64,000 nt of DNA from a virus (IMGVR_UViG_3300044840_000026:5113-69112), one strand, 5' to 3'; counted from the first letter of the stretch, positions 6,400 through 47,080 are shown. Notes: a model not told the origin generated them from the sequence alone. Numbers and translations are program-made.

Positions 6400-6428
6400 T
6401 TGCGTAGGCGTACCGCTGAGGGTACGGT
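6400..6428 (+). promoter_or_regulatory. GTACC-box promoter/operator copy 1
   Basis: TTGCGT-N17-TACGGT with CGTACC-GCTGAG-GGTACG at 6409-6426. Confidence 0.85.
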
Positions 6429-6456
6429 GTTCTCATGACACATAGCGTGGTGACCA

Positions 6457-7230
6457 ATGGGTAAGAAAAACGCTCTCAACATCGGCGGAGATTGTTGGCT
6501 ACCCAAAGAACTGGTAACAGAGACCGTCGCCATGCTTGCCAAACGCGGCATGGGCAAATCCAACGCCGCCGTTGTGCTCGCCGAGGAGTTCTCCGCATCG
6601 AACTTTCAATGGGTCGCTATTGATCCCAAGGGTGACTGGTGGGGCATCCGTTCTGGTGTTGACGGTAAAGGTCCAGGGCTAATCAGTGCCTATTTTCGGC
6701 GGGCGTCATGGAGACATTCCGCTTGAGCCAACTGCTGGCCACCTCATGGCATCGTTGATTGCCGAACGCGGGCTGACGTGTTTGTTGGATGTTTCGCTGT
6801 TCTCAAAAGGTGACCAGATTCGTTTTGTCACCGACTTCGCTGAGAGCCTTTTCAGGATGATGGCTGACAACCCGCACGCCTGTCATGTCTTCTTGGAAGA
6901 GGCAGAGGAGTTCCTACCCCAGCGCGTCGACGCTCGTTCAGCTCGAATGGTTGGGGCATACAGCAAGATTGCAAAACAAGGCCGTACCCACGGGTTGGGA
7001 ATGACGTTGATTACACAACGCTCGGCATCGTTGAATAAGGACGCCCTCTCGCAAACTGACACTTTGGTGTTGTTCCGCACGGTCAGTCCTCATGATCGTA
7101 AAGCCGTCGTCGCGTGGACCGAACATCATGATGAATCCGCCCAGGTGGCCTGTCCAAGCTGCGGACTCTCGGGCTTATCGAGAAATCAGGACAGCTCATG
7201 TCCTCGGAATTCATGGAAAGTATTGGGTAG
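6457..7230 (+). pseudogene. HerA/DUF87-like P-loop ATPase remnant (frameshift plus internal deletion)
   Basis: Walker A AKRGMGKS and IDPKGDWW; an extra A at 6681-6682 breaks GPGL(S)VPIFGG; Walker B-like VFLEEAEEF and LITQRSA; after ~7143 another frame reads GGLSKLRTLGLIEKSGQLMSSEFMESIG*, which I recognise as the family's extreme C-terminus. Confidence 0.75.
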
Positions 7231-7233
7231 CTC

Positions 7234-7262
7234 TTGCACGTCAGTACCGTTAGGGGTACAGT
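7234..7262 (+). promoter_or_regulatory. GTACC-box promoter/operator copy 2
   Basis: TTGCAC-N17-TACAGT with GTACC-GTTAGG-GGTAC at 7244-7259. Confidence 0.85.
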
Positions 7263-7268
7263 GACCAC

Positions 7269-7517
7269 ATGAGCACAATCGAATCCTCGGCCACCTTCAC
7301 AGACCTTACTTACGGTTACAGCCTTCTGAATGGCGTTGTGGTTGACGTGGACGAAGAGCCAGTCGAGATCCTCAACCACTGTAACTGCGACGTGGACTTC
7401 CTCTGCTCAAACCCGGAGTGCATCGACAGGCAGATGAAGATGGAGTCGTACTACGGGCGCCGCAACATTGCGCCTGAGTGGACTGAGTATTTCGAGAAGT
7501 GGAAGGCGAACAAATGA
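7269..7517 (+). CDS. Hypothetical protein with Cys cluster
   Basis: ATG 6 nt after the -10 of promoter copy 2 (leaderless); HCNC...C...C. Confidence 0.65.
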   Translation: MSTIESSATFTDLTYGYSLLNGVVVDVDEEPVEILNHCNCDVDFLCSNPECIDRQMKMESYYGRRNIAPEWTEYFEKWKANK

Positions 7518-7747
7518 GCACGCCACTAGACGACGCAACGGACGCAGTGATGGAGACATTTCATCACTGCTTTGACAGCAAAGAGCGATGTCGGGAAGTG
7601 TTGGGCGTTGCGTTCGGTGCAGCGCGTGAACATGCGCCAGCGCGCATCGGAACAGCGATTGCATTCTCTGACTTCCAAGGCAATATTCCATTTACCTTGT
7701 TAGGCAGCATGGCCGATGCCGCTCTCGGAGAGGCAGTAACACCATGA
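7514..7747 (+). CDS. Hypothetical protein
   Basis: ATGA overlap. Confidence 0.55.
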   Translation: MSTPLDDATDAVMETFHHCFDSKERCREVLGVAFGAAREHAPARIGTAIAFSDFQGNIPFTLLGSMADAALGEAVTP

Positions 7748-7887
7748 ATCGTTCTGTAGCCCTATGGCTGTGTCTCGGGCTCTCGTTCCTGTCATCCGTC
7801 GTAGTCCATGACCGCTGGAGTGCTGCGTCATTCATCACGGGCGCGTTAGTTCTGCAAGGGACCAGACCGGAGAAGCCGAAACCATGA
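7744..7887 (+). CDS. Small membrane protein (47 aa)
   Basis: MNRSVALWLCLGLSFLSSVVVHDRWSAASFITGALVLQG...; ATGA overlaps at both ends. Confidence 0.55.
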   Translation: MNRSVALWLCLGLSFLSSVVVHDRWSAASFITGALVLQGTRPEKPKP

Positions 7888-8096
7888 GCGAACTAGATGA
7901 CTTGTTTGATGAGGCTCCATCGTCGGATGCTCGCGAGCTGTATGCGGTGCCCGACGCTCGGGCACCACTACCCACCATGCGTCCGGTAGCGAATGAGGAT
8001 GACCCCATTCTGTGTGGTGACGCGGCCAAAGAAGCCGTAGCCAAAGCTCGCTCTGCTCTTATGGGCGAGCGCACGAACCATCAGAGGTCAGCATGA
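7884..8096 (+). CDS. Hypothetical protein
   Basis: ATGA coupling. Confidence 0.55.
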   Translation: MSELDDLFDEAPSSDARELYAVPDARAPLPTMRPVANEDDPILCGDAAKEAVAKARSALMGERTNHQRSA

Positions 8097-8269
8097 AGTT
8101 CGTCTATTTCGTCGCGTACCAAACGCCCGACTCATTTGGAAGCGTGGAAATTTCGACACCGGCTGCGTTGACCACCCTCGACCAAATACGGGCAATCGAG
8201 AGCGATCTGAACGAGACGCACGGCGGGTCCGTGTCCGTGCGGAACTGGCAACTACTCCGCGAGATCTGA
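8093..8269 (+). CDS. Hypothetical protein (58 aa)
   Basis: MKFVYFVAYQTPDSFGSVEIS...VRNWQLLREI; ATGA coupling. Confidence 0.55.
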   Translation: MKFVYFVAYQTPDSFGSVEISTPAALTTLDQIRAIESDLNETHGGSVSVRNWQLLREI

Positions 8270-8280
8270 ATCCCGGATCT

Positions 8281-8316
8281 TTCAAGAGTCTTGAAGCTAT
8301 GCTCAGACCATGAGCT
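8281..8316 (+). promoter_or_regulatory. Composite promoter: TTCAAG box + TATGCT -10 + TGCTCA-type box
   Basis: TTCAAGAGTCTTGAA (8281-8295), TATGCT (8299-8304), TGCTCA-GACCA-TGAGCT (8300-8316); same module as at 26352. Confidence 0.7.
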
Positions 8317-9023
8317 CAGAGCACATCACTCGCCTTGTCCCTGAAACCCAAAGCTACGAAGGGCGCAGCTTTGGTCGCCACATCGAGCACGACCCTCGCT
8401 CGTTTGCATTCGCTCACGGGGTGCTGCCACGGCCAGTCATTAAGTCCCAGCAGTGGACCCGCCGTATTCCGATCCTGAATCAGGGTAACGTCGGTTCTTG
8501 TACGGCGAACGCCTCGACGGGGTGGGTGGGCACCGATAACGCCTGGCGCCAAGGACTCACCGCTGTTGAAAACATCGCACTGGATGAGGCGTGGGCACTC
8601 AGGTTCTACGAAATCGAAACTCGCCTCGATGGAATCCCTGGTGAATACCCACCTGATGACACCGGGAGTTCGGGCCTGGCTGCGGGTAAGACGCTGCACA
8701 AGCTCGGCTTGGTCTCGAAGTACCTTCATGCATTCTCGTTGAGCTCCCTCGAGGCGGCACTGCAGAATGGGCCGGTACTCTTGGGCTTGCCATGGCACTC
8801 CGACATGATGGACGCCGACGCTGATGGCAATGTCCAAATCACGGGCGACATCGTTGGTGGTCACGAACTCTGTGCCGATGGGCTGGACGTTGAAGGTAAG
8901 CGCGTCAAGATCAGCAATTCATGGGGCGCCGAGTGGGGCAACCAGGGAACCTTCTGGCTGACCTTCGACCAACTCGAGGAATTGCTCGACGATAGCGGCG
9001 ACGTGACAATCCCCATCGTCTGA
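8310..9023 (+). CDS. Papain-like C1 cysteine peptidase
   Basis: NQGNVGSCTANA (Gln/Cys), IVGGHEL (His), SNSWGAEWG (Asn). Confidence 0.9.
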   Translation: MSSEHITRLVPETQSYEGRSFGRHIEHDPRSFAFAHGVLPRPVIKSQQWTRRIPILNQGNVGSCTANASTGWVGTDNAWRQGLTAVENIALDEAWALRFYEIETRLDGIPGEYPPDDTGSSGLAAGKTLHKLGLVSKYLHAFSLSSLEAALQNGPVLLGLPWHSDMMDADADGNVQITGDIVGGHELCADGLDVEGKRVKISNSWGAEWGNQGTFWLTFDQLEELLDDSGDVTIPIV

Positions 9024-9226
9024 TGATTGGGCGCTTCGTTAAGTCCTGGTGGAGCGGCTGGCCAGCGGTGTTTTGGTTCGTATCCTTTATATGGTGGATG
9101 GGAATCCTTCGCCATGACGTTGTTCGCCACCGATGGATTTCGTCGGGGTGGGATCTGGCCTTTCTGGCTCTCGCTTTTTATTGGGCCGCCAAGTCAGTAG
9201 AGCGATACGACAAGAAGCACCAGTAA
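9023..9226 (+). CDS. Small membrane protein
   Basis: Two Trp-rich hydrophobic segments. Confidence 0.6.
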   Translation: MIGRFVKSWWSGWPAVFWFVSFIWWMGILRHDVVRHRWISSGWDLAFLALAFYWAAKSVERYDKKHQ

Positions 9227-9408
9227 TGCTCGGGTGCCCGACAGGCGAATGCTCACATGACGAGAGATTGCACGATGCGTCTATAAGCGGCCACCCCGTG
9301 TGTTTTGCCGGGGGCTGTGACTGCGGGCGTAGCGGAGGAATGTCCGTGGGCGCCCAATGCTCGCCTTTGATGCCAAGCTCGTCTATCAGCCTGGAGTGTC
9401 CGATATGA
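9226..9408 (+). CDS. Small Cys/His-rich protein
   Basis: TAATG overlap; CPTGECSH...H...C...CDC. Confidence 0.45.
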   Translation: MLGCPTGECSHDERLHDASISGHPVCFAGGCDCGRSGGMSVGAQCSPLMPSSSISLECPI

Positions 9409-9632
9409 GGTTATTTCGCCGCTCACATCGTGAGCCTAAGCATTCCTATCCAGAGAGCATTCCAGCATTCGACACGCTGGCGATAGATGCTCCAAAAGCA
9501 TACGCTCAACGCCCCTCATGCCCATTGTGTGGGGAAACCAAACGTCGCGTCTGCACAAGATCGTTTGCTTCGGAGTTCCGTTGCACAAATGACGAATGCT
9601 CAGTCAAAGGGGACTACCTATGGGCTATGTAA
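9405..9632 (+). CDS. Small Zn-ribbon protein
   Basis: CPLCG...C...FRCTNDEC; ATGA overlap. Confidence 0.5.
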   Translation: MRLFRRSHREPKHSYPESIPAFDTLAIDAPKAYAQRPSCPLCGETKRRVCTRSFASEFRCTNDECSVKGDYLWAM

Positions 9633-9728
9633 TCACGGGTTTGGTTTGCGGCGTCGCGGGCTTTTTGCTCGCATGCGGAGCGGCCTGGGTGATCAACAAA
9701 CTAGAAGACTGGCCCTAAATCAGAGCGA

Positions 9729-9763
9729 TTGACGTTGTAGGCGCGATCACTTAGAATGATCGC
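9729..9763 (+). promoter_or_regulatory. Consensus promoter of repressor 2 with overlapping palindrome
   Basis: TTGACG-N17-TAGAAT; GCGATCA-N7-TGATCGC (9743-9763) covers the -10. Confidence 0.75.
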
Positions 9764-9764
9764 T

Positions 9765-10163
9765 ATGAGCCGTACCGATTCCCCCATCCGGCCTATTGTG
9801 TCGTCCATTCGCTTCGATGTCGCCCGTGTGCTCACCCGCATGGCCAACGAGCAAGGGCTATCACGATCGACCCTCTACACCCGCCTCCGCCGGCCACGAC
9901 AGACCGTCGACAACTGGCTTTGCGCCCGTGCCGTTCCACGTCTTGAGGATTTCCCCGACGTTGACAAGGCCCTGGGGTTCTTCCGCGGGAAAGTGCTCGT
10001 CGAGACCGGATTCGTAGATGAAGAGGCCACCGCCAAAAACTGGCTCGCCACTACTGAGTCGATTGCTCCAGAGTTCCGACCGTTCATTCTTGACGCCATC
10101 ACTGCGGCACAGACTCGTAGTCGCGCAGACAGTCGTCCCGAACAAGGGCGCTTGGTCGGTTAG
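9765..10163 (+). CDS. XRE-like HTH regulator (paralogue 2)
   Basis: Shares TV..W.....PRL.DFP....ALG...G..L...GFV with 2566-2988. Confidence 0.7.
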   Translation: MSRTDSPIRPIVSSIRFDVARVLTRMANEQGLSRSTLYTRLRRPRQTVDNWLCARAVPRLEDFPDVDKALGFFRGKVLVETGFVDEEATAKNWLATTESIAPEFRPFILDAITAAQTRSRADSRPEQGRLVG

Positions 10164-10191
10164 CGTTTAAAAGTGGTGGGGTGGAAGCCAC

Positions 10192-10233
10192 AAGCCCCCG
10201 ACGACAGACCCCAAGCCTTGTCGTCGGGGGCTT
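10192..10233. terminator. Bidirectional terminator hairpin
   Basis: 15-bp perfect stem AAGCCCCCGACGACA / TGTCGTCGGGGGCTT between convergent genes. Confidence 0.85.
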
Positions 10234-10236
10234 TCG

Positions 10237-10880
10237 TCATTCCGCACACGTTGCGTGAGTGAGGAAGGCCTGCGCCGCGACGACTTCTTGCCCAGTCGTA
10301 CACGGTTGGAGGCCTCAGCACAAGGCGTTCCGCAGTGAACGTCGCCTTCGCAAAGGATCAGCCGCAGCACTGGGCCAAGACGCTCGAGTCGTTCGGATGT
10401 CAAGTACCGCTCACCCTGGTATTCCTTCAAGCATGGTTTGCACCAGCTTTTGAGCTGACCCGTCCGCTTGTTCTTGATGCCGAATGCCCTCTTGGGTTGA
10501 GGTCCGCAGCGACCGCAGATGCGGACACCGGCACGCGGTTCCTTCTTGCGCTTTTTGGCGGCGTTGGCCTTATGTAGATTCTTCGGCACCGGCTTTACAG
10601 GTTCGGGATCTGGTTTGTGCGGAGGTATCAACGGGTCACCAGCGCGTGCCGGTACTGACGTGAGCTTGACTCGTCGGCCGGCGCGCAACTGCTCCCATGC
10701 CGCAGCCACCATCGGAATCGGCACACTTACCGCGGCTGCAAGCTCAGCGACTGTTCGTGGCGACTTCCTTACGAGCCCGGAGTCAAGAACGAGAGCAAGT
10801 ACCTCGGCGGCTACCTGTAGCTCGGTTCTCCCACCCGGTAGGCCGTAGGCATTTCGCTTATCTGTCACGAAAGTGCTCAT
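10237..10880 (-). CDS. Winged-HTH plus Zn-finger protein; 1-nt deletion at ~10313
   Basis: RTVAELAAAVSVPIPMVAAAWEQL; CGRC...WCKPC; restoring one T gives CAECLQPC...THATCAE* ending just before the terminator. Confidence 0.65.
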
Positions 10881-10908
10881 CGCTCTGCGTCACTCAAAGA
10901 ATGCAAAT

Positions 10909-10970
10909 TGCTCATAAAGTGAGCATAGCTGTGATACCATCCCTCGCATAAGCGGCGCCGGATGCCCGCG
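10909..10970 (+). promoter_or_regulatory. Capsid-operon late promoter with TGCTCA box and 20-nt leader
   Basis: TGCTCA-TAAAG-TGAGCA (10909-10925), 9 nt, TACCAT, then AGCGGCGCCGGATGCCCGCG (10951-10970). Confidence 0.8.
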
Positions 10971-11054
10971 CTGGATCTCGTCTTGGTGACGACGACAGCA
11001 CCGTAAAGACCAAATCGGATTGCGCAAACGCGCAAGGCATCTCGGAGGCCCAAA

Positions 11055-11972
11055 GTGGCAGAAAACGTTTATACCAGCTGGATTCCTGAGGAATTTAGCG
11101 GCAATGTCATTCAACGTGTCAACCAGGTTTCGGCTATCGAGGCCCTTGCACGTCGTGAACCCATGTCAACAAACGTGCGTTCCGTTCCTCGTTCCGGTGG
11201 TGTTGATGTTGAGTCAATCCCCAACGGCGGCGTTTACGGTGAAGACACCACGGCAAACGATGGCGTGCTGCTGACCGCTCGTAAGTTCGGTAAGGCCATT
11301 CGCATTGCGGATGAGGACCTCAAGGACTCCACGATGGTCGACATCATTGCGACCAAGCAAATCGACTGGGCAACGTCCTACGGCAAGATGCTCGACAACT
11401 CGTCAGTTGGTGTAACGGGTGCAACCAACGGAACAACCATTCCGTTCAGCTCGGTTTACTACCAGCTTGCGCACACCAACGCGACTACTGGCTACACCGC
11501 CAATTCCAACATCACCCAGACCGGCTCAGGTGGCGTCTCATACGACAACATCTCCGCAGCCTGGGGCTCATACGAGCAAGGCGACTACTTCGACTTGAGC
11601 GACACAATCGTGATCGCCCACAGCTCGTTCCGCGCCAAGTTCCGTGGAGTAAAGGACAACTACGGTCGTCCGATCTTCCAAGAGAACGCTCATCCAGGCA
11701 TCGACACCTTGTTTGGTGCGGTTATCCACTGGTCAACGTCTCTCAAGACTTCGGCAGTGGCTACACCGAACCCAGTCGGTAACCCACTCATGTTGGTTGG
11801 TAACAAGCAATACCTGATCCTCGGCGTCCGTTCTGGCCCTGAGTCTCGTGTTGCCGGTGCCGACAGCGGTGCTGCATTCCTCACTGACGAGGCATTGCTC
11901 AAGATGCGTTCTCGTCGTGGATTCAATGTCGGTCACGAGAAGGCATTGAGCATCCTGGAAGACAACCACTAA
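11055..11972 (+). CDS. Major capsid protein (HK97 fold)
   Basis: 305 aa; WIPEEFSGNVIQ, LTARKFGKAIRIADEDL, VKDNYGRPIF, LKMRSRRGF; GGAGG RBS; heads the structural operon. Confidence 0.9.
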   Translation: MAENVYTSWIPEEFSGNVIQRVNQVSAIEALARREPMSTNVRSVPRSGGVDVESIPNGGVYGEDTTANDGVLLTARKFGKAIRIADEDLKDSTMVDIIATKQIDWATSYGKMLDNSSVGVTGATNGTTIPFSSVYYQLAHTNATTGYTANSNITQTGSGGVSYDNISAAWGSYEQGDYFDLSDTIVIAHSSFRAKFRGVKDNYGRPIFQENAHPGIDTLFGAVIHWSTSLKTSAVATPNPVGNPLMLVGNKQYLILGVRSGPESRVAGADSGAAFLTDEALLKMRSRRGFNVGHEKALSILEDNH

Positions 11973-11983
11973 ATCAAACGCTT

Positions 11984-12028
11984 AGTGCTCGCAGGGCCTA
12001 TTCGGGGGAATCCGGTCCTGCGAGCACT
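11984..12028 (+). terminator. Hairpin after the capsid gene
   Basis: AGTGCTCGCAGG / CCTGCGAGCACT inverted repeat followed by GATTT. Confidence 0.7.
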
Positions 12029-12048
12029 GATTTCTTAGGGGGTGAACC

Positions 12049-12579
12049 ATGCCGCAAGTGATGTCCGACGAAGCTGGGATCACGGCATGGGCCACCACCG
12101 ACGAAGTGGCTGCGATAACGGGTGTCGATGAAACAACGATCACCGATGAGGCGATCAACCGCGCCCAGTACATCATCGACATGACCTCGGGTCGTTCGTT
12201 TGCAATGAAGCAGTTGCTTGAGAGCCACCTACACCAACGCGATCTGTACTACTTGAAGCTGGCAACGGCATATCAGACGGTATGGATGATGGCGCAACCT
12301 GACATGTTCACTCGTTCTGACTTGGGAAATCCCATCCAACAGGACAAGGGATTGTCAGTGAGCTTCATGCCGGGTGGCACGACTCTTGCTCCTCTCGCAA
12401 AGCGCGCCCTTCGTCGTTTGAGCTGGAAGGGATCACGCAGCCAAATGATTGGGCGCCGCGGCGAACTCACCATGAACGACTTCATGAACCCAACAGGTCC
12501 GATCGTTGATCAACCAGGCGAAGCGTGGTCTTCTCTCGGCGGCATCAACGACTCATCTGCCATTTGGGAAGGTGACTGA
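12049..12579 (+). CDS. Head-to-tail adaptor
   Basis: Position after capsid; WATTDEVAAITG, LKLATAYQ, LAPLAKRALRRLSW. Confidence 0.75.
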   Translation: MPQVMSDEAGITAWATTDEVAAITGVDETTITDEAINRAQYIIDMTSGRSFAMKQLLESHLHQRDLYYLKLATAYQTVWMMAQPDMFTRSDLGNPIQQDKGLSVSFMPGGTTLAPLAKRALRRLSWKGSRSQMIGRRGELTMNDFMNPTGPIVDQPGEAWSSLGGINDSSAIWEGD

Positions 12580-12911
12580 TGCTTGCGCCAGCCACGACAA
12601 CCATGTCGGTCATACGAGGAACGACAACCGATGAATTCGGTGACGTAATCGATGACAACTCAGTTGCTGTGAGTTCAGGAAATCCAGTGCAACTGACAGA
12701 GATCGCTCGCAATGTCTTCGATCAGGTGACGGGTACTCCGAAGATTGTTCGGACCATCACGGCTCTTGCCGGTTCAAATCTTGATGTCGTACAGACTGAT
12801 CGGCTGCGCGACGAAAAAACCGGCGCCATCTATGCCATCAACGACATCACTGCTGCGCAACGAATTGGCTACACGCCTGACTTGCGACTGGATCTAGAAA
12901 AAACAAACTGA
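12579..12911 (+). CDS. Head-to-tail stopper
   Basis: Position, size, TGATG overlap; RGTTTDEFGD, DRLRDEKTGAIY. Confidence 0.7.
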   Translation: MLAPATTTMSVIRGTTTDEFGDVIDDNSVAVSSGNPVQLTEIARNVFDQVTGTPKIVRTITALAGSNLDVVQTDRLRDEKTGAIYAINDITAAQRIGYTPDLRLDLEKTN

Positions 12912-12993
12912 ATAAACCAACGCTCAGAGATTCGCATACACCCGTAAACGGTGTGAATCAACAGGCGGCAACGTTCCGTAAAGGGGGTGCGCA

Positions 12994-13371
12994 ATGGTAG
13001 TTATGACTAATCCCGCCTGGGCTCAAGAAGCTATGGCCCGCGGGGGTTCTGAACTCCTCGACAAGATCGGTGAGGACATCGAACGCGATGCCATTGGTTT
13101 CGCACCCTTCAAGACAGGCGAACTCAAAGCAGCCATCGGTCACGAGATGCGCGGCGAGTCCACCGTTCGCATCGGCACGGGAGTTGGCGGACACCCATCA
13201 TGTGGCCATGCCGTGTATGTAGAACTCGGTACGCGCCCGCATGAGATCAACGTGAAGAACGCCAAGGTGCTGACAAACGGAGCTTCATTCTTCGGCAGGC
13301 ACGTCGATCACCCCGGTACGGCGCCACAGCCGTATTTGAGTCGCGCTCTCTACATAAGGCGCTCGGCATGA
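12994..13371 (+). CDS. HK97 gp10-like neck/tail-completion protein
   Basis: APFKTGELKAAI, AVYVELGTRPH, HPGTAPQPYL. Confidence 0.85.
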   Translation: MVVMTNPAWAQEAMARGGSELLDKIGEDIERDAIGFAPFKTGELKAAIGHEMRGESTVRIGTGVGGHPSCGHAVYVELGTRPHEINVKNAKVLTNGASFFGRHVDHPGTAPQPYLSRALYIRRSA

Positions 13372-13817
13372 CGATCCTTCATGCAAACACCGAACTCGTC
13401 GCTGTCGCGTGGCTTAGCGGCGTCAATGGCATTTCGCCGGCCATGGTCGGTACAACGGTGCCCGAAGACAACTCAACCTGGGCTGCGTCGGGATTCTTGC
13501 AGGTTGAGGTTCTTGGCGGCACTCCTGGTTTCAACTTGCCATGGGTGAACCCAGTCGTGCGCGTTCATTCATGGGCCAATACCGGCACATCAAAGAAAGT
13601 CCCATGGGGTAAGGCAGCGAACCTTCTTGAACTCGTGCGTGATGCAACTTACGTCGAAGCAGGCAAACGACGCGTGACACTTCCCAGCGGTTTCCCCCAG
13701 GCTCGTGTGGCCGTCGCTGGGCTTGTAGGCGAGCCGCACCGTGTCCCCGCCGACACTGCTTCGTATGCCCATTACTACGTCGATATGCAAATGAATTGGC
13801 TGGAGGTAGCCGCATGA
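13368..13817 (+). CDS. Tail terminator
   Basis: Position before the major tail gene; ELVAVAWL..., PVVRVHSW. Confidence 0.7.
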   Translation: MTILHANTELVAVAWLSGVNGISPAMVGTTVPEDNSTWAASGFLQVEVLGGTPGFNLPWVNPVVRVHSWANTGTSKKVPWGKAANLLELVRDATYVEAGKRRVTLPSGFPQARVAVAGLVGEPHRVPADTASYAHYYVDMQMNWLEVAA

Positions 13818-13996
13818 GAATTCGCACGACCATCACCCCCTCGGTGGTGATGGAGGTCTCTGACTCAGAGTTCAAAGACCTCAAAGCACAAGGCCTCATT
13901 CACGAAGTCGTGAGTGACGAACCTTCCACGGGTCAACCGCCGGAAGAACCAAACACAGATGGGGACCTAGAGACCCCGGAAAACAAGGAGGACTGA
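13814..13996 (+). CDS. Small structural-region hypothetical protein
   Basis: ATGA overlap; MRIRTTITPSVVMEVSDSEF. Confidence 0.6.
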   Translation: MRIRTTITPSVVMEVSDSEFKDLKAQGLIHEVVSDEPSTGQPPEEPNTDGDLETPENKED

Positions 13997-13997
13997 C

Positions 13998-14558
13998 ATG
14001 TCGGTCACTACATCGAACCTGGTCATGGGTCCAGCCACCATCTACTTTGGTGCGTTCGGAGCAACAGAACCAGATCCAACTAACATCAACACAACTCCCG
14101 CAGCGTCAGCATGGACTGACCTCGGTGGAACGATGGACGGTGCTGAATGGAGCATCTCCCAGACATACACAGACTTGCAGGTTGACCAATTGGTCGACAA
14201 GGTTGGCGCGCGTTTGACTGGTCGTGACGTTCAGTTAACGACAAACCTCGCGGAGATCACGCTAAGTAACCTGGCGTTTATTCTCAACGACGGCACAACT
14301 GCGTCGGGTGCGAACTACAAGACATATACGCCCAACTTCGCCACGTCGGCTACACAGCCCACGTATCACGCGTTGTTGATGGACGGTTTTGGACCCAACC
14401 AGGAACGACGTCGCGTGATCATGCGCCGTTGTCTCTCCACCAAGGGCACCAAGATTCCCTACAGCAAGTCCAAGCAAACCATGACGCCAGTGACGTGGGA
14501 CGCCTATTACGTGTCCAACTCAATCGCTTCGTTCGTGATCATTGACGAGGCTGACTAG
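13998..14558 (+). CDS. Major tail protein
   Basis: NLVMGPATIYFG, WTDLGGTMDG, VDQLVD, LAEITLSNL; precedes the chaperone pair. Confidence 0.85.
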   Translation: MSVTTSNLVMGPATIYFGAFGATEPDPTNINTTPAASAWTDLGGTMDGAEWSISQTYTDLQVDQLVDKVGARLTGRDVQLTTNLAEITLSNLAFILNDGTTASGANYKTYTPNFATSATQPTYHALLMDGFGPNQERRRVIMRRCLSTKGTKIPYSKSKQTMTPVTWDAYYVSNSIASFVIIDEAD

Positions 14559-14905
14559 TGGGCGACGTTGACCTCGACAACGCGCAACCTGTTGAGCTGA
14601 CGACAAATACAGACCAGACATCGCCCGAACTCAGACATCTGTTTTCGATCGATGGCAAGCCGTATTACATCGTCAACAAGCCTCGACCAAACATCGCACT
14701 CAAATCACTTTGGGTTCTCAAGACCCAAGGTGAAGAGCAAGCGCAAATGACAATGCTTGTTGCCATGCTCGGGGAGGACGGATATCAGGCGTTGATGAAC
14801 TATGACGACCTGACAGCCGACCAGCTCGAGCAGATCGTCAAGATTGCCAACGACACGGTATTCGGGACGCTGGCGGCATCAACAGGCGAGTCGGGAAAAG
14901 GTTAG
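14558..14905 (+). CDS. Tail assembly chaperone (gpG-like)
   Basis: Position between major tail and tape measure; ends with a slippery site. Confidence 0.8.
   Translation: MGDVDLDNAQPVELTTNTDQTSPELRHLFSIDGKPYYIVNKPRPNIALKSLWVLKTQGEEQAQMTMLVAMLGEDGYQALMNYDDLTADQLEQIVKIANDTVFGTLAASTGESGKG
14893..14899 (+). other. Programmed -1 frameshift site G GGA AAA
   Basis: Canonical X XXY YYZ-type heptamer; the -1 frame is open into the 14956-15288 ORF. Confidence 0.85.
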
Positions 14906-15288
14906 AGGCCCACGCTGATGAGTTTGAGCAGGTCGTTGCTTGGAAGGGCGGCGACTTGCTCAGACGGGCTTTGCACATTGGGTGGGTCATCAATTACCTC
15001 GAAGACCTCGAAGCTGATTTTCGAGTCTTCTACCGGGTCGATGACTTTGACGAGATTGACGGGCCGAAGTTCTTTCGCCTCGCAATGCGAGTGGGCGCAT
15101 ATCAAGGCGCCATCGCTGCGCGTATGGCCGAAGAGCGTGAGGAGGAAGAAGAGGTTGCTCCACGACAGGGACCGCCAAGACGACAGCAGAACACAGACGA
15201 CAGGACCGTGCGGGCGACCGTTGGTGAGCTCGGAATGGCGGCTCCTGGCTGGTTTGCATTCACGAAAGTAAAGAAGACGAAGGACTGA
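14893..15288 (+). CDS. Tail assembly chaperone, frameshifted extension (gpGT-like)
   Basis: In the -1 frame from the slippery site; DLEADFRVFYRVD...FFRLAMRVGAYQG. Confidence 0.8.
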   Translation, partial: GKRLEAHADEFEQVVAWKGGDLLRRALHIGWVINYLEDLEADFRVFYRVDDFDEIDGPKFFRLAMRVGAYQGAIAARMAEEREEEEEVAPRQGPPRRQQNTDDRTVRATVGELGMAAPGWFAFTKVKKTKD

Positions 15289-15291
15289 GAC

Positions 15292-18200
15292 ATGGCTGAC
15301 GAAGGTTTCAAAATTGCCGACGCCTATGTTGAGGTTCACGCGAGGGCGAATGAGTCTGACGGGGCTAAGGCCGCAGAAGAGATTGAAAAAGAAGTCGATT
15401 CCAAAAAGCCAACTGCCAAAGTTGGCGCTACTGCAGACCAGAAGGCTGGCCGAGCAGCAGGCGAGGACATCGCCGAGTCAGCTGGCAAAGGAATCAGCAG
15501 TCGCAGTTCGTTCTTGCGAGGCATCTTCTCCAGGACTGTTACTGACTCAAGATCCGATATCGCACGCGCTGCTCTCGATAACGGTGACGTAGCAGCTGCT
15601 CAGTTCGCTCTCGGGTTTCAACGTGACGCCGCGGGTAAGTTGCGCAACGCTAGTTCTCGGTTCGTTGCCGAGGGGCTGTCGGGTGTTGAAAGCGAGTTAC
15701 AGCGCATCGGGGAGAGCGGCGGCGACAAATTAGGCAATGGGTTCCTAAGTCGTGTCGTACCCTCCATCACCTCATTTGGTTCCGTTCTTTCCAGGCTCGG
15801 CCCCAAGATAAGTGAGGTCGGGGCCGCAGTCACTCGAATAGGCGTACTGGATGTCTTTGGGTCTCTGGCCGTAGGGGCGATGAATTTCGGCGCCTCACTT
15901 GGGCCTGTGCTGGGCCTCCTCGCTGCGATTCCCGCGGTTGCGATGTCTGCCGCAGCAGCCCTATCGACTCTTGCTATTGGGCTGGCCGGCGTGTTCAAAG
16001 CATTGTCGGCATTCGGTAAATCCTCTGGTGGTGGTGGCGGAGGCGGTGGGTCGAATCCTGCACAGCAGATACATCAACTCCAAGAGGCCGTGCATGCCGC
16101 TAGCGAGGCCGTTCAACAAGCCGACCACGGAATCGTCATTGCGGAACGAAGCGTGGCCGATGCTCAGCACCAAACTAAACAAGCCCAAGAGGCGCTAACT
16201 CAAGCGCGCCTCGATGCCGTTGCCGCCATTCAGGCATATGACAACCAGCTGGCTGACGCTCAAATCAGTGAGCGCCAGGCCATGTTCGACCTGCAAGACG
16301 CCCAGCAAACGTTGAACCAATACCAACAATGGGGCATCACGTCGGGCGAGAACTACCAGAAGGCCCAGCTTGGCGTTGTATCTGCCCAGCAGAAGTTAAA
16401 AGAAGCCAGTGAGAACGTCACCAGCACTCAAAAAGCGCAAGCTGACGCCCAGGCAAAAGGGGTCGATGGCAATTCACAAGTCATTTCGGCTCAAGATCAA
16501 GTCAATAAGGCGCTTGAGCAACAAAGCGACGCCTCCTACAACCTCCAGCAATCCCAGCAGCAACTAGCCGACGCAACCCAAAAGCTGGCCGACGCTCAAT
16601 ACAACCTTGCCCACTCGGCGGGTAGCGGAGGGGCGGCCGGGGGCATTAACCAGTTCGCTGCGGCACTAGCCAAACTGTCGCCGAACGCACGGGAGTTCGT
16701 GCTCGCGGTCGTCGGGCTAAAAGGCCAGTTCGACGCGCTGCGAGCCACGGTGCAACAGAACATGTTCGCGGGCCTGGCGACCGAAGTGAAGCAAACCGCC
16801 GCCGTTACATTCCCGACCTTGACGACTGGCATGGGTCTTGTTGCCACATCGTTCAATAACATGGCCAAAGCGGGTTTTGAGGCCGTCAAGACTCCGATCT
16901 TCCAAGGCGCGTTGGCGACGGTGTTTCGAGGTACGGCGCAAGCCACTCAGATGTGGGCCAGCGCAACAGGCCCGCTAATTACGGGACTCGCCAATCTCGC
17001 AGCAGTGGGGATGCCGTTCATTCTGCAATTCACCAAGGCTCTTACGAGCTGGCTAACTGCCAAGGGCGTGTTTCTGTCGTCGGCTGAAGGTGCCCAAAAG
17101 ATGCACGAGGTGCTGGGCAAGGCGGCAGATGCGGCCAGCAACCTATGGCACATTGCCCTAAATCTGGGTACTGCGCTCAAGAACATCGCTGGCGCCATGC
17201 ACGTCGAGGGCTTGCTTGCGAGCCTGTCGAAGGTGACCGCGGAGTTTGCGAAATGGACGGGTTCAGCTCAAGGCCAACAACAACTGTCGCAGTTCTTCCA
17301 GTTCCTTACCCAGACCGCGGCAAAGACCGCGGCCGTCATGCCTCTGGTGTGGAACGTGATTTCAAAGATCATCAACTTCCTAAATGCAAACCCGGCTATC
17401 AAGAACCTTGCCGAGGACTTCTTGGCGTGGTCGATCGCGCTCGGCCCGGTTATTTCGCTCGGCGGCAAGGTGGTATCCATCGTGGGAGGATTCTCCAAGA
17501 TCGTCGGCCCAGTCAAAGCCCTTGCCGCGTCGTTCAAGGAGGGAGGGACAGCCGCAAAACTTCTTAGCGGAGAAATGACTGTGTTGGATGTGATCATGTC
17601 TGCCAATCCAATCTTCCTGATTGTCGCGGCCCTCGTCGTGTTGGGCGTTGCCTTCTACGAGGCGTATCACCACATCACTCCATTTCGTAACGCAGTGAAT
17701 GAAGTGGCGTCCTTCCTTAAGACGGTCGTAGTCGACGCGTTTCACATTTTGCAATCCGTCGTAACCACGGTGTTTTCGTTCATCGTGGGCTACATCTCGG
17801 GGCAAGTCAATGCCGTCATCTCATTCATCGGCTTTCTAAGCCGCATCCCCGGCGACATTGGGGGTTGGTTCCGCTCTGCGTACAACGCGGTGGTCGGGGC
17901 GCTTGGTGACATGGTGAGCTTTGTCAGCGGCATTCCCGGCAAGGTGATCGGCGCACTGGGTGATGTCGGTTCGATGCTCTACGACTCTGGTAAGTCGATC
18001 ATCAGAGGCTTGATAAACGGCATCAAAAATATGGCGGGCGGAGTTAAAGATGCGGTGAGCGGCGTCCTCAAGGATGCTCGTAACTTGCTGCCGTTCTCGC
18101 CTGCAAAAGAAGGCCCGTTCAGCGGTAAGGGATGGACCCTGTACTCAGGCCAGGCAATGATGCAGGGCCTAAGTGAAGGTATCGACTCGCAATTAAGTGC

Positions 18201-18489
18201 CGTGAAGTCAAGCGCCGCACGGGCCATGACTGCCGCTTCCTCGGCTTTCAAGGGCGGTAAGTTTGGCCTGGCGCTCACGGGAGCGGGCGGTTCAAGCCTT
18301 CCGAACACGTCTGGCCCGACCAGCTTGTCGGCGGCTAATAACTCCGCCACCCCAGGTTCAACAATCACTGTCGGGAATCTGACGTTGCAAGTCAACGGCG
18401 CCATGGACCTGACATCGGATAGTGACAGGCGGAAACTCGTTCGCAAGATCCGCGACGAGCTTGTGAAACTGGAATCGAGTACCCGTTAA
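15292..18489 (+). CDS. Tape measure protein
   Basis: 1065 aa, Ala/Gln coiled coil, W/F-periodic repeats, LPFSPAKEGPFSG. Confidence 0.95.
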   Translation: MADEGFKIADAYVEVHARANESDGAKAAEEIEKEVDSKKPTAKVGATADQKAGRAAGEDIAESAGKGISSRSSFLRGIFSRTVTDSRSDIARAALDNGDVAAAQFALGFQRDAAGKLRNASSRFVAEGLSGVESELQRIGESGGDKLGNGFLSRVVPSITSFGSVLSRLGPKISEVGAAVTRIGVLDVFGSLAVGAMNFGASLGPVLGLLAAIPAVAMSAAAALSTLAIGLAGVFKALSAFGKSSGGGGGGGGSNPAQQIHQLQEAVHAASEAVQQADHGIVIAERSVADAQHQTKQAQEALTQARLDAVAAIQAYDNQLADAQISERQAMFDLQDAQQTLNQYQQWGITSGENYQKAQLGVVSAQQKLKEASENVTSTQKAQADAQAKGVDGNSQVISAQDQVNKALEQQSDASYNLQQSQQQLADATQKLADAQYNLAHSAGSGGAAGGINQFAAALAKLSPNAREFVLAVVGLKGQFDALRATVQQNMFAGLATEVKQTAAVTFPTLTTGMGLVATSFNNMAKAGFEAVKTPIFQGALATVFRGTAQATQMWASATGPLITGLANLAAVGMPFILQFTKALTSWLTAKGVFLSSAEGAQKMHEVLGKAADAASNLWHIALNLGTALKNIAGAMHVEGLLASLSKVTAEFAKWTGSAQGQQQLSQFFQFLTQTAAKTAAVMPLVWNVISKIINFLNANPAIKNLAEDFLAWSIALGPVISLGGKVVSIVGGFSKIVGPVKALAASFKEGGTAAKLLSGEMTVLDVIMSANPIFLIVAALVVLGVAFYEAYHHITPFRNAVNEVASFLKTVVVDAFHILQSVVTTVFSFIVGYISGQVNAVISFIGFLSRIPGDIGGWFRSAYNAVVGALGDMVSFVSGIPGKVIGALGDVGSMLYDSGKSIIRGLINGIKNMAGGVKDAVSGVLKDARNLLPFSPAKEGPFSGKGWTLYSGQAMMQGLSEGIDSQLSAVKSSAARAMTAASSAFKGGKFGLALTGAGGSSLPNTSGPTSLSAANNSATPGSTITVGNLTLQVNGAMDLTSDSDRRKLVRKIRDELVKLESSTR

Positions 18490-19748: not shown

Positions 19749-19761
19749 GTAGGGGCAAGCA

Positions 19762-28703: not shown

Positions 28704-28706
28704 TGG

Positions 28707-30272: not shown

Positions 30273-30311
30273 GGCGCTCACAATCTGGGCATATGCCCTA
30301 CACTGGCGGTT

Positions 30312-32704: not shown

Positions 32705-32709
32705 GTGGC

Positions 32710-32740
32710 TATGCTTTCCAAGACGCTCACTATGTGAGCA
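32710..32740 (+). promoter_or_regulatory. Scaffold promoter with TGCTCA-type box
   Basis: TATGCT (32710-32715), CGCTCA-CTATG-TGAGCA (32724-32740). Confidence 0.65.
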
Positions 32741-32764
32741 TTTCCCCCCAACTTGGAGGTATGG

Positions 32765-33802: not shown

Positions 33803-33812
33803 CCTTCGCCCG

Positions 33813-34938: not shown

Positions 34939-34947
34939 GGATCAAGT

Positions 34948-35451
34948 TTAGGACTTACGAAACCATCGTCGCTTAGCCGCAGCGAGAACCTTTTCACGCT
35001 CTGACTCAAGCTGTTCTTTTAGGTCGTCGACCACCTGTTGAAGATCGCGGGCCCGTTCAATCTTGAACTCGGCTTTTGCTTCCGCTCGCGCCTGAGCCCT
35101 TTCGGCCTCAATGAGTTGTTCACGCATCTCACGAAGGTCGTCGAACACTTCGACAGGGATGGGCAGGATGTTGACCTCGCGCTCCCTGGCCGGACTTTTA
35201 GCTGCTGCCTCAAGAACGTCCTCTATCGCTACCAGTAGCGGAGCGTTACTTGGCCCGTCTTGTTTCCAGCGTACGGAGTCAGTGTCTTTCGCCCAAAAGC
35301 GGATGCGGCGCTCCACCTTCTTGAGCGATTCACCATCGGCTATCTGTTCGGCGGCCTCTTTGATGGTGAGCCATTCAGGCTCGGGAGCCTTGTGCAGTTC
35401 GAGTGCGGTTGACAGTGCTCGCGGCACTGCGGGTTCAGGTGCGGGGGACAT
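34948..35451 (-). CDS. HTH plus coiled-coil protein
   Basis: WLTIKEAAEQI...RRIRFWAK; C-terminal heptads. Confidence 0.7.
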   Translation of the reverse strand: MSPAPEPAVPRALSTALELHKAPEPEWLTIKEAAEQIADGESLKKVERRIRFWAKDTDSVRWKQDGPSNAPLLVAIEDVLEAAAKSPAREREVNILPIPVEVFDDLREMREQLIEAERAQARAEAKAEFKIERARDLQQVVDDLKEQLESEREKVLAAAKRRWFRKS

Positions 35452-44249: not shown

Positions 44250-44549
44250 TTAGGACGCCAGGCGAACCATCACGTTGGGGTATTCCTGCACAAGGGCATC
44301 GAGTTCGCAGTTGCCGTAGACGACGCCGTCGACCACGGTGGCAAAGTAGCTGTCGTCCTCAAGCAGTACGCGGTCAATGAAGCCGTACTCATCTTCGACC
44401 TCCGCGTAGACCTGGACGAAGCGGGCGACATTGCCGTCCTCAAGCATGAACATCTTGGCTGTGATCTCGATTTGGTCGGCGCTGTAGTCGTTGAGAGCGT
44501 TCTCAAGTATCAGCTTTTCGGTTGTTTGCATCTCGGTCGTTGTTTCCAT
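44250..44549 (-). CDS. Small acidic hypothetical protein
   Basis: ATG 6 nt after the -10 of GTACC promoter copy 4. Confidence 0.7.
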   Translation of the reverse strand: METTTEMQTTEKLILENALNDYSADQIEITAKMFMLEDGNVARFVQVYAEVEDEYGFIDRVLLEDDSYFATVVDGVVYGNCELDALVQEYPNVMVRLAS

Positions 44550-44555: not shown

Positions 44556-44606
44556 ACCGTACCCCCGTCGGTACAGTGTCGCAAGTCATTCGTCAGGAAA
44601 CTTGAA
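44556..44606 (-). promoter_or_regulatory. GTACC-box promoter copy 4 with upstream TTCAAG box
   Basis: TTGCGA-N17-TACGGT; operator 44558-44575; TTCAAGTTTCCTGAC (44592-44606) 7 nt upstream of the -35. Confidence 0.85.
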
Positions 44607-44613: not shown

Positions 44614-45305
44614 TCAGCATTTTGTTTTGTTCATCTGACTATTTGCTTGAGAGAGGAGTGAACCCCACTGAGTGGCCGTGTATTTGGACTCCGCCCAATG
44701 ACTGTTCATGGCTGCGTTGAATACGGCAAAGGGGTCAGAACCTTTAAGAGCCTTGATGATTCCGCCGTAGAGGCCGTTGTGAAGCGTGTCGAGGGTAGCT
44801 TTCATCCCAACCTCATAAGTGGGGTAGGCGCGGGCCCCCTTGCCTGCCATCCACCAGCTGCCTGGTTCGCTTCGTTTCGTGTTGAGCGGGTTGTACTGAG
44901 CCGCGTTTTGGAAATGGCCGCCCTCGGCGATTGACCAGGCCACAAGAGCAGCCTGGTTGTCACCATTTTTGGGTATGCCCAGGCGCGCCAGCAGATCCCC
45001 AGCCCACTGGGCGCGAGTAAAGCAGACGCCTGGGCTTGTTATTTTGGGTGTGAGGCCCCAGCGGTAGCGGCGGCGGGCTGCATCTGACTATTGGTCTGCG
45101 AGGACGCTGCGGGGATATGAAGGGCCATCCAAGCGCCTCCAATGAGGAACCCGATCGATGCGCACAGAAGCTTTTCAAAGCGACTTCTCATCGTTGCCTG
45201 GAACGACTGGCGGCGTTTCTTGCCGGCGACCACTGCTTCGGGTGTGACGGGCATGCTCGCCCATTCACGGAGTTCGGATAGACGGGGTAATTCGGTAGTA
45301 GCCAT
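44614..45305 (-). CDS. Membrane-anchored putative lysozyme-like protein; 1-nt deletion in a G run at ~45057
   Basis: TM CASIGFLIGGAWMAL; restoring one G joins 45039-45305 to TRAQWAGDLLARLGIPKNGDNQAALVAWSIAEGG...YNPLNT. Confidence 0.65.
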
Positions 45306-45338
45306 TTCAAAAGTTCCCTCTCTGTTTGCTGTCCGGGT

Positions 45339-45389
45339 ACCGTACCTCTATCGGTACGACCGTGCAACACATTAGCCAGGATTTTTGAA
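45339..45389 (-). promoter_or_regulatory. GTACC-box promoter copy 5 with upstream TTCAAG-type box
   Basis: TTGCAC-N17-TACGGT; CGTACC-TCTATC-GGTACG (45341-45358); TTCAAAAATCCTGGC (45375-45389) 7 nt upstream of the -35. Confidence 0.85.
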
Positions 45390-45515
45390 ACTTTGCGGAT
45401 ACCGTTCACACAAGAGGGCCGATGGTAAGCTGGCACCAGCCTTCCAGAATTCCTCTCTGTGGGTCACGAAAAGCCGTTCATGGGTGAGCCCGGACGGCTT
45501 TTCGTTTGTCTCGAT

Positions 45516-46292
45516 TTATTTGCTGGTTTCCTGTGCGTCGACGGTCAGGTCCGCGGCGCTGGCATCCACAAAGCAGGTTGAAATATCGGGGCGTCGAGAG
45601 TCGGTGATGTCAAACACCACTGCTCGTAAGCCAGCGCATTCATCGGGTCCAAGGTTGTCCTCGTTGCCAACGATGTGATCAACCTCATGAAGCCTTAGCC
45701 GTCGATCGTCTGACTCCTTGAGAAGTGCAGGGATGCATTCAGTGAGTCGATCAATGGCTGCGTCGTAGTCGTTACTAGGGGTGTGCCCGACGTATCTGTT
45801 TGGCGAACCGAGCGGGAAGTGTTCGCGTGTGTACGTCCGCGCTTCCGTCACGGTCAGCAAATCATCCTTGATGGCTTGTAGCCCCTCCGGCGTCATAGCC
45901 CGTGTTTCCTCCGTTGTGCTCTGAGGTGTCTTGCTTCGCGATTGCATATCAAACAGCTCTGCAATCTCACACCATGGCGCATGGAATTTGAAATTGCCGT
46001 TGCCGCAATCGACGCAGTAACCGTCTTCGTTGTAAGCCCACTCGGGCCGGTCTTTGTGTTGGCGTTCTGAATAGGGCGTTGTGCCGACATCACGATGCCA
46101 ACTGTCAATTTCGTCTTGGCTTGGCGTAGGAGTCCCGGCACTTTCCCGGTGTTCATTGTGGGCGTAGACGACAATCTCGCTGATCTCACTTACCAGTTTG
46201 TCGACGTCCATTGTGAGCTGACCGCCCCGCATGCCATCGAACATGTTTGCGTAGATAGCGTCTGCTATCGATTCTTGCGAGATGTCAGTCAC
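45516..46292 (-). CDS. Hypothetical protein with Zn-ribbon
   Basis: YCVDCG...HAPWC; GTGA overlap. Confidence 0.6.
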   Translation of the reverse strand: MTDISQESIADAIYANMFDGMRGGQLTMDVDKLVSEISEIVVYAHNEHRESAGTPTPSQDEIDSWHRDVGTTPYSERQHKDRPEWAYNEDGYCVDCGNGNFKFHAPWCEIAELFDMQSRSKTPQSTTEETRAMTPEGLQAIKDDLLTVTEARTYTREHFPLGSPNRYVGHTPSNDYDAAIDRLTECIPALLKESDDRRLRLHEVDHIVGNEDNLGPDECAGLRAVVFDITDSRRPDISTCFVDASAADLTVDAQETSK

Positions 46293-46813
46293 GACACGGC
46301 CGCTTCTTTTGCGGCGTAATACTCACTCAACGAAACAGGCGTGAATACCTTGTTGCCAGTCCACTTCGCCCGCTCATCCCAAATCACGTAGAGCGTGTCT
46401 CCGTATTTGTGGACACCAGGCGAGTAGACATGGCCGTCAAACGCAGCGCCGTCAATTGACATGCTGTCTCTCGGAACGCCGAATTGCTTGAGCTTGCTCA
46501 TGACGTCCACGCCTTTGAGGGAGGCCATCCACTCACGGGCTACTTTACCTGCCTTGGTTCTGCGATTCGGAGTCAGGTAGTCGTTGGCCTTGAGCTTGGC
46601 CCAACCTTCTGGGTATGTCTCCGCCGTTTCGTTCTCGCGTCGGGCAATGCCAGTGATTTGCGTAACGCCCCAGTTGTCGATTGTCCAGAAGTCTCGGCCG
46701 TCGATCTTGGATGTTCGTAACCGTTCGCGCCAGGCGGCGTACTCTGCGGTTGCCTCGTCCCACACCGTGACAACTTCTGGGTCGCTGGAGGCAAAGGCTT
46801 GTACCTCGCTCAT
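46289..46813 (-). CDS. Hypothetical protein
   Basis: GGAGG RBS, ATGA overlap. Confidence 0.65.
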   Translation of the reverse strand: MSEVQAFASSDPEVVTVWDEATAEYAAWRERLRTSKIDGRDFWTIDNWGVTQITGIARRENETAETYPEGWAKLKANDYLTPNRRTKAGKVAREWMASLKGVDVMSKLKQFGVPRDSMSIDGAAFDGHVYSPGVHKYGDTLYVIWDERAKWTGNKVFTPVSLSEYYAAKEAAVS

Positions 46814-47043
46814 GATCCCTCCGTCAGCCGGCCAGTCTTAATCAGCCATTTTTGCACCTTGGTCCAGTTGTACAGATGCACCGTAGTAGTGCCTTGTTTG
46901 CGCGGCAGAGGGAACATAGGGGAGCGCGAGGCCCACCGCTTAACGATTTGAGGGTCGTAGGGGTGGCCGTCTCGACCCATCACGCCAAGAGCCGTCATGC
47001 GTTCTACTATTTCTCCGGCCGTCAGCCATTCATGTGTTGTCAT
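46810..47043 (-). CDS. Small winged-HTH (MerR/Xis-like) DNA-binding protein
   Basis: WLTAGEIVERM...IVKRW...FPLP...LYNWTKVQKWL; start taken at ATG 47043, 8 nt after the promoter -10. Confidence 0.7.
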   Translation of the reverse strand: MTTHEWLTAGEIVERMTALGVMGRDGHPYDPQIVKRWASRSPMFPLPRKQGTTTVHLYNWTKVQKWLIKTGRLTEGS

Positions 47044-47051
47044 TATCTGGT

Positions 47052-47080
47052 AGCGTACCGCCATAGGTACGTGAACGCAA
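47052..47080 (-). promoter_or_regulatory. GTACC-box promoter/operator copy 6
   Basis: TTGCGT-N17-TACGCT with CGTACC-GCCATA-GGTACG (47054-47071). Confidence 0.85.

Follow-up and report, generated by a model that had tools for sequence, protein, structure and literature searches.

A repeated GTACC palindrome at predicted promoters of accessory genes as a candidate operator set in an uncultured actinobacterial phage

The DNA considered here is a stretch of 64,000 nucleotides (nt), further called the window, which comprises bases 5113-69112 of a single virus record of 69,112 base pairs (bp), IMGVR_UViG_3300044840_000026. The source is an uncultured phage of actinobacteria, the terminase and capsid of which are about 50% identical to those of the cultured Streptomyces phages Yara, Dryad, and Zuko; Yara is the closest listed relative by terminase, and the capsid is 60-67% identical to soil-metagenome proteins and to Streptomyces and Frankia-type genome records. 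The guanine-cytosine (GC) content of the phage is 55.6%, no tRNA genes were found in its sequence, and a gene of XerC/D-like tyrosine recombinase at 57296-58207 is the single feature that points to lysogeny. In this genome the palindrome GTACC-N6-GGTAC is present seven times, six times inside a promoter-like unit of constant form (P1-P6) and once over another candidate promoter (P7). The six units had been noticed in an earlier sequence-only reading, which took them for a portable promoter-plus-operator cassette that brings newly acquired genes under one repressor. The sites are listed below, where positions are those of the window and the number between the two hexamers is the spacer length in nt.

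6400-6428, plus strand: P1, TTGCGT-17-TACGGT, with the palindrome at 6410-6425
7234-7262, plus strand: P2, TTGCAC-17-TACAGT, with the palindrome at 7244-7259
23173-23201, minus strand: P3, TTGCTT-17-TACGGT, with the palindrome at 23176-23191
44556-44584, minus strand: P4, TTGCGA-17-TACGGT, with the palindrome at 44559-44574
45339-45367, minus strand: P5, TTGCAC-17-TACGGT, with the palindrome at 45342-45357
47052-47080, minus strand: P6, TTGCGT-17-TACGCT, with the palindrome at 47055-47070
6242-6257: the seventh palindrome, GTACC-CCCAAC-GGTAC, extended by its flanks (TGTACC...GGTACA) to an 18-bp perfect dyad
6251-6280, minus strand: P7, a candidate promoter read from the sequence, TTGACG (6280-6275), 18 nt, TACCGT (6256-6251)

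The pattern TTGC-N19-TACRST has exactly six matches in the window, all at the very coordinates that the sequence-only reading had given, against a mean of 0.26 in shuffled sequences, none of which (0 of 100) reached six. The palindrome has seven matches in the window and likewise seven in the whole 69,112-bp genome, with 0.02 expected, and a chance origin of the sites is ruled out by the shuffles. In six of the seven palindromes TTGC stands at a fixed offset, and P1-P6 account for six of only eight TTGC-N19-TANNNT matches in the window. The arms are all-or-none, either perfect or absent: dyads of GTACC and GGTAC with N4, N5, N7, or N8 spacer were found neither in the window nor in the whole genome, and the admission of one mismatch in the arms adds just two sites, which is the chance level (0.85 expected). 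The N5 variant that had been proposed near 6241-6257 turned out to be the seventh copy at 6242-6257, which has the usual N6 spacer; an extra GTACC half-site adjoins the palindrome of P5. Restriction-site avoidance was considered as the reason why GTAC stands out and was rejected, because GTAC is only mildly low (0.70 of expectation) and GGTAC and GTACC occur at expectation. Generic E. coli-type promoter and terminator scans yielded nothing above background. The sites, their register and statistics, and the positions of start codons described below are direct observations.

When the six units are aligned together with their flanks, TTGC, GTACC, GGTAC, and the two or three bases completing the -10 element are conserved and nothing else. 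In promoter coordinates TTGCNN lies at -35 to -30, GTACC at -25 to -21, and GGTAC at -14 to -10, the -10 hexamer being TAC(G/A)(G/C)T, and in P1-P6 both G-14 and the TAC of this hexamer come from the right arm. All six sites fit the form of a sigma-A/sigma-70 promoter (TTGnnn, 17-bp spacer, TAnnnT, and G at -14). Over the seven palindromes the arm bases are invariant (70 of 70), while the N6 spacer, the N4 stretch after the -35 element, and the flanks vary, and the arm centres are 11 bp apart in an exact dyad in every case. Such a distance equals one helical turn, as for helix-turn-helix (HTH) dimers that are placed on one face of the DNA. The palindrome overlaps the core promoter, from -25 to -10 in P1-P6 and from about -13 to +3 in P7, where the TAC of the -10 hexamer TACCGT is provided by the left arm in a register that differs from that of P1-P6. 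Since the seventh copy, situated 168 bp from the palindrome of site 1 (centre to centre), overlaps a different promoter in a different register, the palindrome appears to be an element of its own.

To our knowledge, the left arm at -25 to -21 plays no role in sigma-70 promoter recognition. Its sequence is nonetheless the same at all sites and exactly complementary to that of the right arm, and this is the chief argument for a binding protein with two-fold symmetry. That the sites could be explained with no repressor at all, as promoter-only elements, activator sites, or RNA hairpins in read-through transcripts, is very unlikely. The coincidence of the right arm with G-14 and the -10 element is in keeping with such an explanation, as is the ability of the sites to fold as RNA into hairpins of 5-8 bp (-7.5 to -12 kcal/mol); however, it accounts neither for the invariance of the left arm nor for the seventh copy, which stands outside the promoter register. 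The 17-bp spacer, found in all six sites, is the optimal one, as opposed to the 19-20-bp spacer with a centred dyad of MerR-activated promoters. The hairpins possess no U tract and leave the fixed TTGC register unexplained, and an RNA role was rejected because the transcript of each unit would begin only downstream of its palindrome.

The seven palindromes probably represent the operator set of one sequence-specific DNA-binding protein with two-fold symmetry, which is most likely encoded by the phage. At P1-P6 the bound dimer would cover the spacer and the -10 element and so exclude RNA polymerase, and at P7 the same protein would cover the promoter from -13 to +3, while with a free operator the units would be transcribed by the host polymerase of sigma-A/sigma-70 type. 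Promoter activity, protein binding, repression instead of activation, and the identity of the binder are read here from sequence features, and at this level the earlier designation of the units as promoter plus operator agrees with the sigma-A anatomy, the invariant complementary arms, and the site statistics. Several points weigh against the operator interpretation. The scans found no related phages or contigs carrying the motif set; the invariance of the right arm may be due in part to the promoter alone; the fold modelled for the gene beside P6 is one that often binds direct repeats and not palindromes; and the binder could be a host regulator, which is considered improbable.

The start codons add a further regularity. 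An ATG is located exactly 6 nt past the -10 element at sites 1-4 and 8 nt past it at site 6, and the probability of at least four such ATGs in six sites by chance is about 1e-6. The distance of 6 nt at four sites implies leaderless mRNAs of the actinobacterial type, and thus four units, probably five, would begin translation at the first transcribed base. Site 5 is the sole unit with a leader, which is 33 nt long and contains the Shine-Dalgarno sequence GAGAGGGAA. Each leaderless unit of 38 bp would therefore hold the signals of transcription, regulation, and translation start together. The same scan revealed two more leaderless units, with consensus-like promoters free of the palindrome, at 2566 and 9765.

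The search in other genomes was directed at multi-copy sets of the motif. Yara has one match, which is intragenic; the full-pattern scan of IMG/VR gave 16 matches, each of them single; 185,579 species genomes yielded over 120 matches, nearly all of them single, where chance would give about 280 by a rough estimate; and no multi-copy set was found in 80 metagenome contigs encoding capsids 40-61% identical to that of the phage. The pattern scan of the genome and its relatives that had been proposed thus recovered seven copies in the genome itself and no repeated set in the relatives. One of these 80 contigs, Ga0193742_1000387 (capsid 51% identical), contains at 140-1600 five GTACC...GGTAC dyads with N6, N7, and N9 spacers within 1.5 kb, including GGTACCCCTAGGGGTACC and GGGGTACCCCCGAGGGGTACCCC, which may reflect a related regulator with different spacing. 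In addition, the contig JAUNUA010000318.1 (2.3 kb) of a Brachybacterium metagenome-assembled genome carries two near-identical promoters at 44-72 and 372-400, of the form TTGC-N6-GTACCC-N4-GGGTACAGT; they precede small genes in an apparent actinobacterial mobile element, in the same layout as in the phage.

These data bear on the proposal that a host transcription factor binds the palindrome and ties the genes to a host signal. The motif is embedded in promoters that are expected to serve the host polymerase, and the Brachybacterium contig, which resembles a mobile element, has a like promoter with TGTACCC-N4-GGGTACA twice, so a role of a host protein is conceivable; nevertheless it is improbable. 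In public genomes the number of single matches is roughly what chance would give (the estimate of about 280 refers to 596 Gb and is rough). Four actinobacterial genomes of 2.2-4.2 Mb contain 1-9 copies each, so that the palindrome is approximately 40-200 times denser in the phage, and a host regulon is held improbable since these four genomes show no enrichment and hold fewer copies than of a reversed-pattern control.

The units are predicted to drive accessory orphan genes at three places in the genome. The genes and associated features are the following, with protein length in amino acids (aa) and isoelectric point (pI) where relevant.

5971-6219, minus strand: gene behind site 7, an 82-aa orphan, its leader having GGAGAGGAA before the ATG at 6219
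6435-6464, plus strand: nine-codon leaderless open reading frame (ORF), MTHSVVTNG, predicted to be driven by P1
6457-7229, plus strand: HerA/DUF87 ATPase remnant, which matches just residues 2-232 of a 622-aa homologue
7269-7517, 7499-7747, 7884-8096, and 8093-8269, plus strand: small-gene operon behind P2, the first ATG 6 nt after the -10 element
22810-23166, minus strand: P3 gene, 118 aa, with an N-terminal hydrophobic segment and 59% T/P/S/A
44250-44549, minus strand: P4 gene, a 99-aa acidic orphan (pI 4.05) with a predicted leaderless start
44614-45305, minus strand: P5 gene, membrane-anchored, in two frames, with an 88-aa product (45039-45305) that has a hydrophobic segment and a further domain (44614-45084) in the -1 frame
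45466-45505, minus strand: two-way terminator hairpin, with an A run on one side and a U run on the other, which closes the P6 unit before P5
45516-46813, minus strand: two orphan genes, of 174 aa and 258 aa, predicted to be co-transcribed with the winged-helix gene behind P6
46810-47043, minus strand: first gene of P6, a 77-aa basic protein (pI 10.1), its ATG 8 nt after the -10 element

Most of the gene descriptions in the sequence-only reading agree with this list, namely the ATPase remnant behind P1, the small-gene operon behind P2 with its four genes in 7269-8269, the T/P-rich protein, the acidic protein behind P4, and the small HTH gene behind P6, the product of which adopts a winged-helix fold in the model. 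The label "lysozyme-like" for the P5 gene had to be dropped, as Pfam and PDB sequence searches gave no family match for it.

The first place includes sites 7, 1, and 2. The nine-codon ORF ends in a stop codon that overlaps the start codon of the ATPase remnant (ATG at 6457; AATGGGTAA), an arrangement suggestive of translational coupling. The reading frame of the remnant shifts by +1 near 6690 and changes again near 7147, and its probable stop, TAG at 7227-7229, is 4 nt ahead of the -35 element of P2. P2 and the small genes thus sit at the very point where the HerA gene, with 37% of its length present, breaks off; this resembles a scar left by gene replacement and favours the idea of acquisition expressed in the sequence-only reading. 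None of the four small genes behind P2 has a Pfam match, and a PHROGs match for 7269-7517 is likewise lacking.

P3 begins 4 nt past the stop of the upstream gene 23206-23376 (minus strand), and the P3 gene has a second ATG 12 nt downstream of the first, with GGAGGA before the second. The two frames of the P5 gene join at the heptamer CCCAAAA (45048-45042), which is followed by TAA (0-frame C-CCA-AAA-TAA). The heptamer fits the slippery pattern X XXY YYZ, and a -1 slip would enter the frame 44614-45084 and give a longer fusion; the two frames point to programmed -1 frameshifting or else to a gene that is broken. P6 is placed within a 78-bp gap ahead of a divergent glycosyltransferase gene. The terminator hairpin region after the P6 unit reaches -50.4 kcal/mol for a 146-nt stretch (z -3.3, with none of 200 shuffles equally stable), and it is the only clear terminator, the stability of hairpins in the stretches after the P3 and P4 genes being not significant. 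No homologues of the 174-aa and 258-aa genes were found in 50,697 phage records, and the 77-aa and 82-aa proteins are orphans among 5.8 billion proteins.

The composition of the downstream genes is ordinary: their GC content is 0.53-0.59 as compared with 0.556 for the genome, and GC at third codon positions (GC3), 0.51-0.76, brackets the 0.61-0.68 of the core genes with no consistent shift. Newly acquired genes, as had been supposed, are not indicated by GC and GC3 values that match the genome. The term "moron" fits in so far as the genes tested are orphans, and the ordinary composition speaks against it; all six units have a promoter-like element, with a clear terminator only after the P6 unit. 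Besides, morons are not defined by having a repressed promoter.

As for the portable cassette, the sequence does not support it, since nothing is shared between the units beyond functional positions. The truncation of HerA, like the start of two units 4 nt behind stop codons, is compatible with gene replacement at these points. The six units are not recent duplicates, because the spacer centre, the bases after the -35 element, and both flanks differ freely, and the assumption that they are recent copies of one mobile cassette was rejected on the same basis. A related proposal is that the 38-bp unit is a self-contained plug-in module, spread by recombination at the shared 29-mer and governed by a palindrome-reading dimeric protein of Xis/BldC type. 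The truncation at P2 and the two units 4 nt after stops would then be insertion traces. Dimeric reading of a palindrome is unusual for the Xis/BldC-type fold class, and this proposal is held to be rather unlikely.

The sequence-only reading named the product of 46810-47043 as the obvious autoregulator of the set. In terms of mechanism this 77-aa protein would repress its own promoter P6 and the other six sites, and the negative feedback would fix the level of the accessory genes. The protein is basic and comes from the first gene of the P6 unit, its model is confident (predicted local distance difference test score 85.5), and the top fold matches are BldC, the small-terminase DNA-binding domain, lambda Xis, RacA, TnrA, CarH, and RdfS, with the MerR cluster among its language-model neighbours. 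By its model the protein may be assigned to winged helices of the MerR/Xis/BldC type. However, the fold matches are weak (E 0.1-1), Pfam gave nothing even at a threshold of E 10, only one homologue was found among 1.8 billion representatives, and the model, with just one short helix at the C-terminus, offers no coiled coil through which the protein could dimerise. Small members of the MerR/Xis/BldC class often bind direct head-to-tail repeats as monomers, as Xis and BldC do, and an alternative role of the protein would be that of an excisionase acting with the tyrosine recombinase encoded at 57296-58207. Thus the winged helix behind P6 stands, but the word "obvious" was an overstatement for an orphan of such a fold class, and the protein is a tentative candidate for the regulator. 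The 82-aa protein behind site 7 is an unlikely regulator given its low-confidence model, an SH3/KOW-like barrel with two helices, and is more likely a target.

Other candidates are the products of XRE-type genes, of which two are paralogous and are provided with the leaderless promoters mentioned above.

2566-2988, plus strand: XRE-like protein of 140 aa, candidate regulator, with the leaderless promoter TTGCCA-18-TATAAT-7-GTG and no palindrome
9765-10163, plus strand: XRE-like paralogue, candidate regulator, with a weak HTH_31 match and the leaderless promoter TTGACG-17-TAGAAT-7-ATG

The binder may possibly be one of these paralogues or the XRE protein 3890-4102, and in that case a repressor duplication would have given two regulators and two operator sets; the assignment is as tentative as that of the winged-helix protein, and the XRE-like paralogues are at least as plausible. 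The paralogy is clear (33% identity, E 3e-11), both promoters are consensus-like and free of the palindrome, as the promoters of repressor genes often are, and 3890-4102 has a clear HTH_31 match. Moreover, Cro/CI-type dimers typically bind dyads of 16 bp in which the arms are separated by 11 bp, and regulators are also needed for at least two further palindrome families of the genome. At the same time the GTACC palindrome adjoins none of the three XRE genes, and a Pfam match is lacking for 2566-2988. Of the further families, TTCAAG-N3-CYTGA is present at 2448-2461, 8281-8295, and 44593-44606 (the last copy, TTCAAG-N3-CCTGA, just upstream of P4), and TGCTCA-N5-TGAGCA at 10909-10925 and 26377-26393. 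The gene 2566-2988 adjoins a TTCAAG box and 9765-10163 is about 750 bp from a TGCTCA palindrome, so that each paralogue is nearer by position to a palindrome family other than GTACC, which speaks for the 77-aa protein. Both XRE-like promoters have GATCGC in common between the -10 element and the start codon (TATAAT-GATCGCC-GTG and TAGAAT-GATCGCT-ATG, at 2531-2568 and 9729-9767). Another possible DNA-binding protein is the 82-aa product of 24699-24947 (minus strand), located in a glycosyltransferase island, with a sub-threshold AP2-domain match (E 2e-6, 28.3 bits as compared with the cut-off of 33.3).

The divergent region 2334-2557 is situated between the XRE-like gene at 2566 and a long minus-strand operon, in which genes of a Gp3-like protein, a DNA methylase, and an SNF2 helicase were identified, and it is presumed to be the main early switch of the phage. 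This region carries a TTCAAG box and no GTACC dyad. On the above presumption, the GTACC set would be a second regulon, separate from the switch.

Some features of the genome outside the GTACC units were also observed. The head genes are split: the capsid and tail genes, together with a protease-like gene, occupy 8-23 kb (8310-22806), and the genes of large terminase, portal, head-morphogenesis, and scaffold proteins lie at 28.7-33.4 kb (region 26615-34403), unlike in Yara, where the terminase, portal, and capsid genes are all inside about 7 kb. This may be either a rearrangement or an assembly artefact. A Fic/DOC-domain gene (34357-34938) with a 167-aa partner (34357-35451, minus strand) forms another antisense island among virion genes, which has no GTACC unit. 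At 63708-64000, within the DUF7666 ORF 63195-63998, a 24-nt unit is repeated in tandem 12.2 times (95% matches) as far as the record extends; a break of the assembly within this repeat is probable, which leaves the genome ends undefined.

If confirmed, the units would provide a compact actinobacterial part in which promoter, operator, and leaderless start are combined in 38 bp, in six natural variants and with an orthogonal repressor, and the set would show how scattered accessory genes are placed under one control apart from the main lysis-lysogeny switch.

Among the known systems, the C1 repressor of phage P1 (a name not related to the unit P1) acts at 22 dispersed operators, which are 17 bp long and asymmetric and are mostly found at promoters of separate operons (PMC8546580). 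The present set is similar in that one phage repressor, here a predicted one, would serve many dispersed promoter-linked operators. It differs in the perfect dyad with a variable 6-bp centre, compared with the asymmetric operator of phage P1, in the actinobacterial and mostly leaderless character predicted for the promoters, and in the genes, which are accessory orphans and not core lytic functions.

The Cluster A phages L5 and Bxb1 have 20-30 copies of a short repressor site across the genome, with the true operator in the early promoter Pleft, and these sites are 13-14 bp long, lack dyad symmetry, are bound by a monomer, are oriented with transcription, are located mostly outside promoters, and block elongation (PMC6550527). 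The phage described here resembles them as an actinobacteriophage with a repeated and dispersed candidate repressor site, but asymmetric sites of the stoperator kind, oriented with transcription and lying mostly outside promoters, were not found among the seven, all of which are palindromic and associated with promoters. In the Streptomyces phage phiC31 many copies of a conserved inverted repeat by early promoters bind one repressor, and the present set is similar in its conserved inverted repeats at predicted promoters of an actinophage. One regulator acting at many dispersed operators is a well-established principle, as phage P1 and L5-type mycobacteriophages demonstrate, and the gain is a new example and not a new concept; the traits that appear to distinguish it are the perfect dyad in a fixed register, the reuse of an arm as the -10 element in two registers, and the predicted leaderless starts.

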